Positions 15,194 to 23,404 of a DNA stretch of 64,000 nt are shown piece after piece (the stretch's first letter is position 1; each line of letters begins with the position of its first letter). A program made the position numbers and the translations under genes. The notes below the pieces were generated by a model. It was given only the letters and a program-made list of their open reading frames with translations. It had not been told where the DNA came from and made no database searches. The stretch covers positions 3,658,001 to 3,722,000 of the forward strand of contig CM075988.1 of assembly GCA_038087875.1 (NCBI GenBank), read 5' to 3'. The DNA is from Malacoraja senta. Its lineage: Eukaryota.

Positions 15194-16097
15194 AGCCCCT
15201 GTCCCACTTAGGAAACCTGAACGGAAACCTCTGATGACCTAGTTTCCGTGAGGTTCCCGGAGGTTTTGGTCACTCTCCCTAATTGTCGAAAGTGGTTTCC
15301 GCGTAGTCGAGGCTTCTTCTATGTTCCTGCGATTATTTCAACAAAATCAAAACTGGCCTCGACTAAAAATAGTTTGCCGTTTGGTCGAAGCCAGTGGAGT
15401 GGGGTCGCTATTTACTTACAGGCAGTCGAAGGCAATCTCCTTCGCTGACCAGCCATTTTGATTGGCTCATTGGAGTTTTCAGCAAAGATCCTGTAGGAGC
15501 TTTGGTTTTCAGGACCTAGAAGAGCCGCCGGAAGGTAAAATGCCCGCTAACTTTGTTAAACTTCTTTAAAATGTCTCCTTCACTGCCTCCACTCCTTCTC
15601 TCCCCCTTCTCTCTCCTCTTCTCTCCCCTTCTCTCCCCTTCTCCCCCCTTCTCTCTCCTCTTCTCTCCTCTTCTCTCTCCTCTTCTCACTCCCCTTCTCT
15701 CTCCCCTTCTCTCTCCCCTTCTCTCCCCTTCTCTCCCCTTCTCTCCCCTTCTCTTCCCCTTCTCTTCCCCTTCTCTGTCCTTCTCTCCCCTCCTTTCCCC
15801 TTCTGTCCCTCCCTCCCGCGCTCTCTAAAGGCCTTACCGTGCTCTGTGGCAGCCGTTTACCTTCCTCTTCATTGCACAGACAGCGCTGCTCCGCTGTCCC
15901 TGGCCCCCACCTTCGCGATGTGTTTGTGTGTGTGTGTGTGTGCAGTCGGTAGCAAAGATCCTGTCGGATCTTTGGTCAGTAGATGCAGCTCACGCTTCGG
16001 TGGAGGCTTTCCAGGCGGGTGACCAAAACCTGTGGCGACTCATGGAAACCTTGGGTGGGTCGCAAGGTCACCAGAGGTTTCCGTTCAGGTTTCCTAA
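15194..16097. mobile_element. Harbinger-type MITE with internal CT-rich microsatellite
   Basis: Begins taa|agcccctgtcccacttaggaaacctgaacggaaacc. The inverted copy ggtttccgttcaggtttcctaa ends at 16097 with the outer TIR lost at the junction with element A. Internal blocks are shared with 41306-41893. Confidence 0.8.
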
Positions 16098-16099
16098 TG

Positions 16100-18455
16100 G
16101 CCCTGTCTCACGGTGCGAGTCCACCCACGAGTGATCCCGAGTGAAAGAAAATATCAAACTCGTGGTTGTCGACGAGATTCCAAGTTTATGTTCACGAGTT
16201 TAAACCAGTTCCCACGTGTATGTCTAAGTTTGCCGTTTACTTCTCATTTCTGCGATGTACCAAGTTCCTCTCCCGAGTTACTCTTGAGCCAACAACGACT
16301 ACCGACGTGTGGAAAAATCATCACATGGTAAAAATGATGTCATGCAGTTTTTTTTACACTATAAAAAGACCCAGCCTGAAGAACGATCTCGACAACCTAT
16401 TTCTTTTCTCCAGAGATGCTGCCTGACCAGCTGAGTTAGTCCATCATTTTGTGTCTATCTTTGGTTTAAACTAGTATCTACAATTCCTTCCTTCAAACTT
16501 TTAGAGCAGTTTGTTTCAAGAAACAATCCTTCCAAAATTGCATTCAAAAGTCAATTTGAACTGCATTTGTTCAAGGTCTGGCATCAATCATTGAAAGGCA
16601 TAGGCTGTTTTGTGTCGGGAGGAACTGCAGATGCTGGTTTACACCGAAGATAGACACAAAATGCTGGAGTAACTCAGCGGGACATGCAGCATTTCTGGAG
16701 AGAAGGAATGGGTGACGTTTCTGGGTGAGTCCTTCTTCAGACTGAAAAAACGTTTCGACCCTTCTCTCCAGAGATGCTGCCGGCTTGGCTGAGTTACTCC
16801 AGCTTTTTGTGTCTAGTAAGATTGTTTTATTCCCTTAATTTATCTCTCATCAAAACGTTGGTAAACTTCTAACAAAAAGATTACGTAAATTGGACATTAA
16901 CGTTATTTTTCCCCCCGACAGCAAGGTCCGTAGACCAGAGGGATAGCAGTGTGTGTGTCTCTACTCACCCAGTATGTCCGTCAGAGCAGCCGTCCCACCG
17001 TCGCGACTTAAACTGTATAAAGGTAGCGGCTCAAAACAGTGCTGATTGGGCAGATCTGCCCAGGAACCACCTCTTTCACACTCACCCCAGCCCTGGGAAA
17101 CAAGTTTTCAGAGCCCTACAGTCGCCCCAGCCCGCCCGCAACCTTTGAATGAAAGACAAAGCTCAAACTCTGCACCGAGGTCAGGATCGAACCCGGGTCT
17201 CTGGTGCTGCCAGGATGATAAAAAAAATCAATTAAAAGAATTGATAGGAAAAGCTACTGATGATACATTTATATCAGTTAATAAACAGCAAAAGCAACTT
17301 GAGAATGTTTAATTGATAAAAGATTTCCTGTCTGAATTGGTTTAAATCTGGTATTTTTACGCATCTTTGGTATTTGCATAATGAGGTGTGGAAGGGACAG
17401 CTCTGACCTTCAGTCGCTCTTGTTATGCACTCAACATGCAGGACTATTTGGTTATGTTTTAATCTTTATCCTGAGATAGGAGAAATAAACAAAAAGATCG
17501 CTATTGACATGCTCTGAGTCATCATCTATCCATGCAGAGATTTCCACACGGTTAATATAATTGTAAGTGGCCGCTTTTTAAATCCTTCTTCCCCATTATG
17601 TCACAATAACCATTTTAATTTTGCACACTGTTATTCTTGTTACGTTGGATAAAAGATTGTTATCCCATAAATAAGAACCAATAATAGTGAGGTGCTTGCT
17701 TCAGATTCTTCTGTTCCTATGATTCTCTCTCTGTTTCTCTGTCTTGTCTCCTCCTCTCTCTCTCCCTTCTCCCCCTCCCTCTCTCCCCACCCTCTCTCCC
17801 CATGGGCAATCACTACCAAACTGTCTGCCCACACAGTCAGTACACCTATCCTACACTTATCTCCCATACTAAGTCACCCCAACCCCCCCCACTCCCCTCC
17901 CCTCCCCCCCGACCCCCACCTTTCCCTCCCAACTCCAGCCCGTCCCGACTCCCTGAGAAACTGAAGGGAGCGACAATCAACTGCCGCGGATACAAATAAT
18001 GTCATACACAAGAAAGGGCAGATGCTGGTTGACAAAAAGTGAACACACAGTGTTGGAGTAACACAAAGACACAGCAGAATTTTGGAAACGTCATCCCGTC
18101 ACCCATTCCTTCTCTCCAGAGATGCTGCCTGCCCCGCTGAGTTGAAGAGTTCCCCACGGTAGACTCACGAGTCACTAAGGTAAACTCACGGGCCACTACG
18201 TTCTTACAACGAGTTTAAAAGTTTAAAATGTTTACTTCAAGAGCAAATTTGACTCGTGGAAATCTTTCATCATGTTGAAAGATTTTCACGAGTTAACAAG
18301 TTTCCCGAGTACCTGCCGTTAGCGTTACGAGTCGCTAAGTTACTTCCACGAGTTCCGACGTTCCCGCTTCGTTAATTCTACGTGATTACCACGAGTTTGA
18401 TTTGCTTTAAACTCGGGATCACTCGTGGGTGGACTCGCACCGTGAGACAGGGGTT
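16100..18455. mobile_element. Non-autonomous PIF/Harbinger-type DNA transposon with internal cargo (element A; same family as B, opposite orientation)
   Basis: TIR ccctgtctcacggtgcgagtccacccacgagtgatcccgagt at 16101 matches the reverse complement of ~18411-18453. The arms are homologous to those of element B. Together with the adjacent MITE it splits a V-SINE (14913-15193 and 18459-18484). Confidence 0.8.
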
Positions 18456-19924
18456 TCAGGCAGCAACTCTACCGCTGCGCCACCAAAATTAATTTCAAAT
18501 AACCGACCAGTGTGGGACATGAGAAAGGTGTAGGTCAGATCAGGCAAGCATAATCGAGTCAGTGGGGGTGTTTTTTTCACCAGTCGCTTGTTGCTTGGAC
18601 ATCCCTATGTCTGTCCACAGCAAATTTAGTGTAGGAAGGATGCTGGTTTACATTGAAGATAGACACAACATGCTGGAGTAACTCAGCGGGACAGTCAACA
18701 ACGCTGGAGTGAAGGAATGGGTGATGTTTCGGGTCGAGACCCTTCTTCAGACTGAGAGTCAGGGACAGAGAGTCTAGAGCTATAGAAGGGTAAGGTGTAA
18801 AAGTGATAGATCAAAGCGGATGATGATAAGGAAATGTAAAATGGTTCATCGTTAGCTGAGCGGATTTAGTGACTGGATGTAGTGGAAACAAGAGAGTAGC
18901 TGCTGATCATCACGGCCTGAATCTCACTGAAGATAGACACAAAATGCTGGAGTAACTCAACGGGACAGGCAGCATCTCTGGAAAAAAGGAATAAGTGACT
19001 TTTCGGGTCGAGACCCTTGTTCAGACCCAATGTGTTACTTCAGCATCTTTGGTGTAAACCAGCATCTGCAGTCCCTTGCTACACCTGGATCTCAATGGAT
19101 GTAATAGAGAGGGTAAGACCAACATGGTGCCTAGGGTTGGCACCGACATATTCCTGTCATGCCCTTAACATGGACGAAGGTAACACATTGATGTACAGCA
19201 GTATCATGGAATCCAAGTCTTGCTCCCTGAAAGTGGCAATACAAGTAGTGCTAGTTCAGAGATACAGCGTGGAAACATGCCCTTTGCCCACTGAGTCCGC
19301 ATCGACCATCGATCACCTGTACACTAGCTCTATCCTCCACACTAGGGACAATTTACAGAAGCCAATTAACCTACATCTGTAGTCAGGATTGAACCCGGGT
19401 CTCTGGCGTAGCAAGGCAGTAACTCTACCTCTGTGCCACTGTGCCACTCAAGAAGATAGAGTAGTAAGGAAGGCATACAGTTAAGTGGCATTGAGTGTAC
19501 AAATCAGGAAATCATATGGCAGCTTCGTAGAACACATTTGGGGTATTGTTTGCAGTTCTGATGTGGACGTTTTGGAGAGGGTGCTGGAGAGGTTTACCGG
19601 AGTGCTGCCTGGATTATAGGGTATTAGGTGTAAGGAAAGGTTGCATCGATGTAGAAACAAGGAACTGCAGATGCTGGTTTACAAAAGAATAGTGTGCTGG
19701 AGTAGCTCGGCAGGTCAGGCAGCATCTCGGGAACGCATAGCTAGGTGACGTTTCAGGTTGGGACCTTTCTTCACTTCTCTTCAGATAAACTTGGATTGTT
19801 GTCTCTGGAATGCTGAAAGTTGAGGGGAGACTTGATACATAAAATGATGAGAGGCATAAATAGGGTAGACAGTCGGAACCTTTTTCCAAGGTGGAAATTT
19901 TAAAGACTGGCGGGCAGAGCATTA

Positions 19925-20537
19925 AGCCCTTGTCCCTCTTTGGTGATTTTTTTCGGCAACTACAGGTGACTAGGCTGTCGCCACATGGTCGCGGGGGTGA
20001 CGCCTGTATGGTCGTGAGTCGTCTCCTCAAGTCGCCTAAAGAGTCGTAACGTTTTTCTGGTCGCCGCTGGATTTTCAAATGTTCAAAACTTTTCGGGGAC
20101 TGTGGGCTTGACGTAGCTTGTCTGCTCCTGTTGTAGGTTGTCGCCAGGATGACACAGGTTGTTGCCAGGTGACGTTGGTTGTCGCCGGGTGCTGACTTCG
20201 GTGAATTCCATTGGCGACTACCTACGTCAACAGGCGACAGGTAACGGCGACTGAATTGCCTTCAGTTGTCTTCAGTTGCCACCGACAGGGTCGTTGCTTG
20301 TCGTAGCTTGTCGCGGGTGGATGTAAGTTGACTTTGGTTGTTGTAGGTTGTCATAGGTGTGGTCATAGGTGGACGTCCTAATGGGTCACCGGTTGTCGGT
20401 AGCTTGCCGTAGCTGGTTGTCGTAGCATGTTGTAGACATTGTTGTGGGGGGGAGGGGGGGGTCCACTCGCCGCTTTTTTGGCGACCTGCTACGATTGTGG
20501 CAGTCGCCGAAAAAATTGCCTAAGTGGGACAGGCCCT
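19925..20537. mobile_element. Harbinger-type MITE inserted in a CR1 remnant
   Basis: tta|agcccttgtccc ... gtgggacaggccct|tta; TTA TSD. Confidence 0.85.
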
Positions 20538-20739
20538 TTAAGGTGAGATTGGTAAAGATGAAAGGAGATGTGCAGGGCAAGGTGGCTGCTGCTGATGGTG
20601 GTGGTGGAGGCAGATATGATCTTGACATATACAACAGTTGTGTTTAAGAGGCCTTTGGATTTACAGGGAATGGAGGTATTATGAATCACGTGCATGCAGA
20701 GATTAGTTTAATTTGGCATCATATACAGCAGGGACATAA

Positions 20740-22780
20740 AACCCTTGCCTCACGGTGCGAGCTGACCCACGAGGTACCCCGAGCTTAAAACAAATTTAAC
20801 TCGTGGTAATCACGTACGATTAACGTAGCAGGAACGTCGGAACTCGTGGACGCAACTTAGCGACTCGTGGCGCTAATGGCAGGTACCCGTGAAACTTGTT
20901 AACTCTTGGAAAAATTCAAACATGTTTAAAGTTTTCCACGAGTAAAATGTACTCTTGAGGTTAAAAATTGAAACATTTAAACACGTTGTAAGAACGCAGT
21001 GGCCCGTGCGTTTACCTTAGTGACTCGTGAGTCTACCGTGGGAAGTCTTTAACTCACCGGGCAGGCAGCATCTCTGGAGATAAGGAATGGGTGATGGGAT
21101 GACATTTCCAAATTTGGGGGGGGGGGGTGAGGAGGGAGGGGGGGGGTGGAGGAGAGAGGGTGGAAAGTGGAGGGAGAGGAGGGGGAGACAGATGGGGGTG
21201 TCTTCATTCACTGGTGGCGGGTGCCGGTCACTGAAACAGGCAGGTGAGATTTCACATCCACCTTGTGTGTGTGTGTGTGTGTCTCTCTCCCTCCCTGCCT
21301 CTCACACAGGCTGAGAGACTCTGCCTCTGTGAGTGTACGTCTCTTTCTCCCCCTCCCACACACAGTAAGACTGAGGTAAGTCCATCTGTGTCTCCCACAT
21401 ACACAGTAAACTCTGCTTTGTGTGTGTATATACGTCTCCCCCCATTTCTCTTTATCCCCCCCTCCACCTCTCTCTTTCTCCCCCCCCCCACCTCTCTCTT
21501 TCTCCCCCCACACACAATAAGACCGATGTATTGTGCTTAGTCTCTCTTCCCTCCCACACACACAGATAGACCGAGGTCCAGTGCGCTCTTTCTCTCTCCC
21601 CCACAGTCACGCCGAAGTACACCACACTGCCTCTGTGCCTCTCTCTCTCTCTCTCTCTCTCCCCCTCTCTCCTTCATACACAGTCAGAGGTCCACAGTGT
21701 CTCTGTGTCTCTCTCTCCCCACTACACACACACACAGACTGAGGTACACACTGCCCGTTGTGTGTGTGTGTGTGTCTGCCTCTGTCTCTCTCTCCCCACA
21801 CACACAGTTAAAGGTACTCCACGCTGCCTGTGTGTGTGTGTGTGTGTGTCTCTCTCTCTCTCTCTGCCCCACCCCCCACACCCACACACAGTCAGTCAGT
21901 CAGAGGAACTCCACACTGTGTGTGTGTGTGTGCGCCTCTGTCTCTCCCTATCACAGTCAGAGTGAGGTACTCCCCCCGCAGTCTCTCCGCGGGCTCTCCC
22001 CGGGCAGGGTGCATCTGCCTCCCTCAGGCTGCCCAGGCAGTCAGACACGACTCTGGTGGCGGGCTCCATGCACAGCTCCTGCCGGCCGGCTGGGAGCGGC
22101 GACGGAGGACAGGGGGAAGTTGGCCACCAGCGGGGCAGTCTCGGCTCTCCATGCACTCCGAGTCTCGCTGGATCCTCGTAATCCTCTGCCTCTGTCAAAT
22201 GGGTGAGTTTAACCTGACCCCCCCCCCCACCCCAACCTCCCTCCACCTCAACTCACGCCTGGGCACCAAAGCAGCTCAGGAGGCGAACCCTGAGGTCCTT
22301 CTCCCAACAATCTGATGTGCACATCCGTGCACATTCAAAGATTTCATCTCCAGTCTCCCCGCAGTGTGTAGACCTGGCAGTAAATTCAATTAAAATATAG
22401 CAAACCTCCGCCTGCTGGTCTTCTAACTACGTGATGTGTGTTTCAAACAAATCATCAGTATAACTGCTCTGGCACTGGACGGTGCGCATTTTCCCTTTGT
22501 AGGTCACATCAATCGATGCAGCCTTCAAAGCTGCAGGATGGAGATGTTGCTTATTAAAACAGACTTTCATTGAGGGTTGGCTCAAGAGTACTTTGGAAAG
22601 GAACTTGTTAACTCGGGAGACGAACTTGGAACATCGCAGAAATGACAGTAAACGGCAAACTTGAGTCATACCCGTGGGAACTCGGTTAAACTATTGATCA
22701 TACACTTGGAATCTCGTGCACAACACGAGTCTTTCGCTCGGGGTACCTCGTGGGTCAACTCGCACTGTGAGACAGGGCTT
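20740..22780. mobile_element. Non-autonomous PIF/Harbinger-type DNA transposon with internal cargo (element B)
   Basis: TIRs of ~45 bp: aacccttgcctcacggtgcgagctgacccacgaggtaccccgagc versus right-end reverse complement aagccctgtctcacagtgcgagttgacccacgaggtaccccgagc. TAA TSD at 20737-20739 and 22781-22783. The flanks rejoin into a CR1-like 3' end (gggaca-taa-tggactgaagg). Confidence 0.85.
22151..22202 (+). other. Candidate signal-peptide first exon (MHSESRWILVILCLCQM-G) inside element B
   Basis: ATG at 22151 after a GC-rich leader, 17 codons with hydrophobic core WILVILCLC, then TGG|GTGAGT phase-1 donor. No downstream + strand exon identified. Confidence 0.5.
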
Positions 22781-23404
22781 TAATGGACTGAAGGTAGACA
22801 CAACATTCTGGAATTACTCAGCTGGTCAGGCAGCTTCTGTGGAGAAAAAAGATGGATGGGTGATGTTTCGGGTCCCACTAATTAACCTACTAACCTATAT
22901 ATCTTTGGAATGTGGGAGGAAATCAGAGCACCTGGAGGAAACCCGTGTGGACAAAGGGAGAACATGCAAACTCAACATAGATAGCACCCGAGGTCAGGAT
23001 CGAACCTGTGTCTCTGTGCACTGTCAGGCAACAGCTCTACTGTGCCTCTGTGATGCCCAGGTAGATAGGGAAGGCATAAGGTATATTTGCCTTCATCGAC
23101 AGAGGCAGCACTCGAGGTCAGGATCGAACCTGGGACTCTGGGCACCGTGAGGCAGCAGCTCTACCAGCTGTGCCACCGTGCCACTGCTAGATATTAAGCA
23201 GCGGGTTCAGCAGAACTTGATGATATCTGCTCGTGTGGTAGAGGAGGGGACCATTGTTTCACTGAGGGAGCTCCGTGAACCCAGGTCCTGTGACACACAC
23301 GAGTGACGAGGATGTCCAAATTGTCTGAAACCCAGAAGCACCAGAAGTCGATCAGATAAACGTAGAGGACACGAGTCTCACATCTGGTTAACAGGCTCTG
23401 ATCA

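Follow-up and report, generated by a model that had tools for sequence, protein, structure and literature searches.

A 64,000-nucleotide stretch of the Malacoraja senta genome (the window; C12:3,658,001–3,722,000 in a 1.94-Gb assembly) contains two transposons, elements A and B, that are copies of two subfamilies of one non-autonomous terminal inverted repeat (TIR) family with TWA (W being A or T) target duplications rather than one-off events. The family is large, likely belongs to PIF/Harbinger, and with high probability its subfamilies carry captured host DNA, namely ptprz1 sequence in B (its upstream region, its first exon and a splice donor) and, in A, a mosaic including a segment of contig C6. 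Intact arms, host-derived interiors, an arm-free source for one part of A (module 2) and amplification with fresh target site duplications (TSDs) were all observed. An earlier note, made from the window's sequence alone, had proposed a family that captures and moves promoters and first exons. Capture and spread of host DNA are borne out; a preference for promoters or first exons did not emerge, the cargo also including TLR7 sequence and repeat-rich DNA without an identified gene.

The core of the TIR recurs genome-wide at no fewer than 3,766 ends with at most one mismatch (control, 2), and the arm searches that the earlier note had suggested returned 3,026 and 2,655 candidates for the two arms, 40 being scored for each. 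TWA stands on either side of 78 of the 93 distinct, complete TIR-to-TIR copies in the fetched loci, and the two 3-bp flanks are identical in 62 (in 58 of these as an identical TWA), compared with 4 when the next triplet out serves as the control. Copies of A and B occur on many contigs with differing flanks, and thus have distinct TSDs at unlinked sites; full-length copies of A elsewhere show 88–93% identity, each with its own TSDs. By TSD and TIR type only, the family is likely PIF/Harbinger, in keeping with the label first given to it, and a link to a transposase was not found. Harbinger TIRs start with G; here the G follows three variable bases, which across 186 ends read AAC (84), AAG (34), TGG (27), TAG (18) and AGC (10) and differ by end and by subfamily. 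The TWA duplication stays exact despite these variable outermost bases, as though the cutting site of the transposase were set by a constant spacing from a motif farther inside. Related 325–370-bp elements without cargo are present in the same genome at 67–81% identity. DNA runs of two other organisms contain arm and interior pieces, no listed piece bridging arm and interior, which gives a weak hint that element B predates recent species splits.

The boundaries of both elements were fixed from copies elsewhere. Element A spans 16098..18455 on the plus strand, flanked by TAA (16095–16097) and TCA (18456–18458), and element B spans 20740..22780 on the minus strand with TAA/TAA as its TSD (20737–20739 and 22781–22783). 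The limits and TSD first proposed for B are correct, and A begins two bases farther out than the 16100 initially assigned. As had been noticed, the two elements are inverted relative to each other and have their arms in common. The long arm of A with its extension (17798..18455, plus strand) is of a type that occurs twice in palindromic subfamily copies, and its short, left arm (16098..16366, plus strand) is common to subfamilies C, D, E, F and H; B has its long arm at 20740..21115 and its short arm at 22576..22780, both on the minus strand. The long arms (A 18078–18456 vs B 20739–21115) are 86% identical over 379 nt (E = 9e-124) and the short arms (A 16100–16280 vs B 22609–22778) 82% over 182 nt (E = 2e-44), in each case inverted. 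The TIR pair of A is perfect over 42 nt and that of B matches at 84% over 57 nt. The matched pairs described earlier are real, and the variants once regarded as private to each element are subfamily traits, B-type ends recurring in B copies and A-type ends in A and C copies. The masked interiors are unrelated, in line with the earlier note, their comparison returning only chance matches of 12–24 nt (best E = 0.026), and both contain the reported TGG|GTGAGT, at 22200–22208 (plus strand) in B and at 16971–16963 (minus strand) in A. A third such site at about 16722–16730 (plus strand) lies inside a copy of a short interspersed nuclear element (SINE) and is missing from the one other copy read there (L413). 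Rejoining of the flanks of B, also claimed, was not shown, with 0 of 10 matches spanning its empty-site junction.

Evidence for capture comes from module 2 of element A (17165..17801, plus strand). It is the left portion of 3.2 kb of DNA copied from a locus without arms, at about C6:67,910,100–67,914,100. All 31 candidates for this module were scored, and only two places lack an arm: C6:67.91 Mb and an unplaced contig, which are 99.8% identical to each other. Both are collinear with about 3.2 kb of a longer form of A at 86–94% identity and carry extra pieces of a long interspersed nuclear element (LINE). The 70 kb around the C6 site holds no family arm, except for a related 331-bp element at a distance of 29 kb. 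On the left, the junction leaves in the element only the end of a V-SINE (a name taken over from the earlier note) of which C6 has a longer stretch; on the right, the C6 segment ends in a LINE tail, after which sequence of subfamily E resumes. The longer form of A is thus subfamily E with about 1.16 kb replaced by 3.2 kb of C6 DNA, E sequence lying on both sides. The direction of transfer, from C6 to the element, follows from the junctions, because they cut host repeats and because the C6 DNA sits between E sequence; the tree gives none. TIR-free donor loci, which the earlier note had anticipated, were found for module 2, only a gap flank being seen for B and none for module 1 of A. Some 30 kb from the C6 donor, L201:2776–4572 (C6:67.880–67.882 Mb) contains an apparently intronless, frameshifted reading frame, presumably Rh/ammonium-transporter-like and possibly a retrocopy.

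These junctions suggest that an internal break in an element was repaired on an unrelated (ectopic) genomic template, by template switching or gap filling. Such repair would replace part of the interior and leave both arms intact, and transposase supplied in trans would then amplify the copy so loaded; the nested set of interiors would arise through subsequent deletions and through recombination among subfamilies, frequently in C/T-rich tracts. We infer an ectopic template because the junctions are internal, their overlaps are 1–2 nt or lie in C/T-rich tracts of both partners, and the source stays in place. Composite transposition seems an unlikely general explanation. In this model, put forward for plant Pack-TYPE elements in PMC8903248, a pair of neighboring elements, or a new insertion paired with a solo arm, mobilizes the intervening DNA along with itself. 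It would fit the many nested and adjacent copies, the palindromic copies with two long arms and the composite adjoining A (see below), which behaves like a compound unit, but module 2 is placed between E sequences with a junction overlap of 1–2 nt and no internal TIR left, and the C6 source retains its segment in surroundings that offer only the distant 331-bp relative as a family arm. Composite jumping may explain some other junctions.

Module 1 of A (16367..17165, plus strand), common to subfamilies E, F and G, consists of SINE pairs and a promoter-like stretch with a GC box, CCAAT, a TATA-like word and the donor-like site at 16971–16963 (minus strand). It reads like a promoter and short exon on the minus strand, another TATA-like word facing the opposite way, and is at present a candidate first exon. 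A search with this module gave 251 candidates, plus 139 and 128 pattern matches, and 85 loci with the module or its E continuation were fetched (30+20+10+25). As possible donors, C3:74.24 Mb was rejected as a longer armed element and L413 for its right arm; L417, L418, L420 and L423 resemble copies broken up by insertions.

The interior of element B is, on sequence grounds, identified as the 5′ end of ptprz1. It appears to comprise captured CT/GT-rich DNA, likely promoter, upstream of the RNA-matched part of exon 1 (21116..21939), exon 1 itself (21940..22202), and a splice donor at 22203 with what are likely the first 370 nt of intron 1 (22203..22575), all on the plus strand. The exon contains 5′ untranslated region (UTR) and 52 coding nt from an ATG at 22151, giving 17 signal-peptide-like codons. 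Four runs from three other organisms, two of them only guessed to be RNA, were compared with 21940–22800. Contig 18 of run X17 (1,552 nt) matches 22149–22202 and departs directly after 22202, at the predicted donor TGG|GT, which supports the intron boundary and places the first exon and donor proposed in the earlier note right to the base; the identity of the intron itself is suggested by contiguity in longer B copies. Run X15, from a second organism, has a 6,006-nt contig with 21940–22151 near one end. The departing letters of the X17 contig have one exact genome match, at C3:83,662,201 on the minus strand, which is a 66-nt exon bounded by AG..GT and in frame with the B ATG at 22151. A motif scan for further exons returned nothing in the 50 kb after this exon 2, and carbonic-anhydrase exons lie just beyond, 58–66 kb downstream on the same strand. 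When compared with solved structures, these match PTPRZ1 best (E = 2e-24 and 6e-22, vs about 1e-7 and 6e-12 for PTPRG).

Element B has been amplified extensively. A search with its interior yielded 940 candidates, of which the top 30 were all B-type elements with an arm, as were all 12 of the longer B copies, and its splice-donor motif is present in 396 copies genome-wide. The ATG, open frame and GT donor are retained in 34 of 42 fetched copies, an upper estimate because similarity guided their choice. Through a deletion near 22150, the window copy lacks about 45 nt of 5′ UTR; most B copies have lost this piece, and it is retained in the RNA-type contigs and in the 12 longer copies. One further B copy, at L207:2700–4985, is split by nested insertions, which we take to include a hAT-like transposase remnant.

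An assembly gap at C3:83,700,092–83,700,291, 38 kb upstream of exon 2, has a flank that matches the far end of the B interior (21120–21209) at 79% over 95 nt, the first 18 nt exactly and in part through low-complexity sequence, and that continues without an arm; the 10-kb stretch at this flank has no TIR. Native ptprz1 exon 1 most likely lies in this gap, the site being located through the flank match and not read. The converse history, in which ptprz1 gained its first exon by co-opting a B copy and the exon-like module originated in the transposon, is very improbable. It could draw on the unread gap and on the arm and interior pieces in DNA runs of two other organisms, which imply that the family is older than this species, but the leader encoded by the B exon is hydrophobic and fits the phase of exon 2 in a conserved receptor, the RNA contigs retain the 5′ UTR piece that most B copies lack, and the gap flank runs on into non-arm sequence, free of TIRs, at the point where B turns into arm.

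Coding sequence of another host gene is carried by subfamily C. A piece at L152:1510–2120 is TLR7-like, corresponding to residues 661–771 of PDB 7cyn (E = 6e-38), and two longer C copies, L333 (C1:343.03 Mb) and L334, proceed from leucine-rich repeats through a membrane helix to most of the Toll/interleukin-1 receptor domain, followed by a coding-like stretch that was not identified. Protein searching with the TLR7 piece gave 253 candidates, and among the 150 rows scored, frameshifts caused many places to be listed twice; all 30 fetched loci with the fragment have an arm. Since this cargo is coding sequence from the middle of a gene, capture is not confined to 5′ ends and promoters. Three near-identical long TLR frames on unplaced contigs (L323–L325; C5499, C3204) are unrelated to the TLR7 cargo.

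Arms kept and interiors changed also characterize the remaining subfamilies (the full set being C, D, E, F, G, H and I) and the palindromic copies. Many subfamilies are deletion products or recombinants of longer forms, and one lineage has the left of C fused with the right of B. Several copies (L015/L030, L006, L007, L009, L010, L012, L014 and L028) have two long arms in inverted orientation, of up to about 650 nt each, and are foldback-like; the right ends of A and B seem to derive from this form. Dozens of unplaced contigs (e.g., C3289, C1335 and C3152) carry one E copy that is amplified inside a large repeat unit; on two of them a Harbinger-type transposase frame lies 19.5 kb from it. A long E-type element is present twice at C3:74,231,631–74,308,900, through a tandem duplication that spans at least 29.5 kb with 99.8% identity and may be an assembly artifact.

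A single longer progenitor for the interiors, the alternative raised in the earlier note, finds no transposase-bearing representative: 0 of 88 frames from representatives of ten subfamilies and from A and B match a transposase family, and 1 matches Toll/interleukin-1 receptor domains. That no capture took place, all interiors being deletion products of one long autonomous element with later SINE and LINE insertions, is barely credible, for although many subfamilies clearly are deletion derivatives of longer forms and the interiors are SINE-rich, those longer forms contain ptprz1, TLR7 and C6 host sequence and no transposase or Myb/SANT traces, the SINE at the A junction is truncated in the element relative to C6, and the gene identities of the cargo already contradict it.

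Several observations weigh against capture as outlined here. Native ptprz1 exon 1 was not seen in the 390 kb of C3:83.61–84.00 Mb, apart from the short, partly low-complexity gap flank, and the splice evidence consists of one contig with a depth of 14, from another organism and a run only guessed to be RNA. No clear arm-free source for module 1 of A was present among the 85 fetched loci. For module 2, the C6 segment has a small TIR element of a different family about 0.5 kb past its end, and the tree is star-like, the C6 locus not being a supported outgroup and one armed copy being more diverged than C6. No intact TLR7 gene was present among 12 matches to the Toll/interleukin-1 receptor domain, where the TLRs with long frames are 40–45% identical, or in a DNA search with the longer C form (best 40 of 260 candidates scored). 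A search with PF13359 (DDE_Tnp_4) gave 534 candidates, 150 of them scored and many with long open frames, and yielded no autonomous partner: family arms were within 1.5 kb of 0 of 30 Harbinger-type transposase loci, and the ends of the transposase elements were not reached.

Within the window, A directly adjoins a TIR element of another TWA family (about 15194–16097, plus strand), whose right TIR is cut at the TAA where A begins and of which an intact family copy was seen elsewhere. The joined outer flanks of the composite of this element and A match intact repeat copies across the junction in 240 of 373 matches (best, 93% over 89 nt). The split V-SINE in which A was described as sitting is indeed split, by the composite rather than by A alone. 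A third TIR element, at about 19925–20538 between A and B, has similar ends and TTA flanks. A search for host genes in the window gave no Pfam match for any of 76 unique-sequence frames.

The kind of element described here, the Pack-TIR, is known; for this scale and this serial modularity in a vertebrate, the literature searched offered no description. According to the cited sections of PMC8277862, capture of gene fragments by TIR elements in animals is rare and nearly always single-copy. The M. senta family shows plant-like behavior in a vertebrate, with repeated captures, kilobase cargo, hundreds of copies and named donor genes, and its nested subfamilies preserve many junctions, making the choice between template switching and composite jumping directly testable. 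Hundreds of false ptprz1 first exons and about a hundred TLR7 fragments are also an annotation hazard that can mislead gene counts and read mapping, and the dispersed exon copies may help explain why native ptprz1 exon 1 is missing from the assembly. It is conceivable, if doubtful, that the roughly 400 B copies act as portable cassettes of promoter, signal peptide and phase-1 splice donor, some of which drive transcription and splice into downstream host exons. Such cassettes would provide genes with new first exons or a secretion signal, amounting to exon shuffling on a Pack-MULE scale in a vertebrate lineage. No description of this TIR family or of Pack elements in cartilaginous fish was found in the literature searched, a scope outside which Repbase, Dfam and subscription journals fell, and the family may already have a library name.

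Compared with known systems, the family has the hallmarks of Pack-TIR and Pack-TYPE elements: both ends are intact, no transposase lies inside, the interior is host-derived, copies are multiple with distinct TSDs, and module 2 of A has an element-free parental copy. The portions of PMC8277862 (Tan et al. 2021) drawn on here report 370 animal Pack-TIRs, including 21 PIF-Harbinger cases (frogs and alligator) and none in elephant shark; only four are multicopy, the worked example has three copies, and the median cargo is 224 bp. Like those elements, the present family has host DNA inside a TIR element, an element-free parental copy and junctions internal to the element, and its capture of a GC-rich 5′ UTR resembles their frog hAT-CAPSL case; unlike them, as far as those portions go, single cargoes of 1.4–3.2 kb occupy between about 30 and about 400 sites, and one family shows captures in series as well as recombination among its subfamilies. 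Pack-PIF clusters are described from maize and rice in the cited sections of PMC8903248, and the likeness extends to TTA/TAA duplications, to ends that are conserved around variable interiors, to nested subgroups with added gene fragments, and to clusters of tens of copies; the differences from the Pack-TYPE elements of those sections are the vertebrate host and one resolved junction pair that looks like internal replacement, not fusion of neighboring insertions. Rice Pack-MULEs, outlined in part in PMC8277862, are multicopy, with several donors per element, GC-rich 5′ cargo and 9-bp duplications. The M. senta family shares the first three of these traits and departs from Pack-MULEs in its 3-bp TWA duplications, its short TIRs and a cargo for which no 5′ bias was shown. 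Non-autonomous Harbinger/Tourist-type miniature inverted-repeat transposable elements have a 3-bp TWA TSD and short TIRs with subterminal repeats. The present family agrees with them in all of these features and differs in its kilobase host-derived interiors and in outermost three bases that vary by subfamily.

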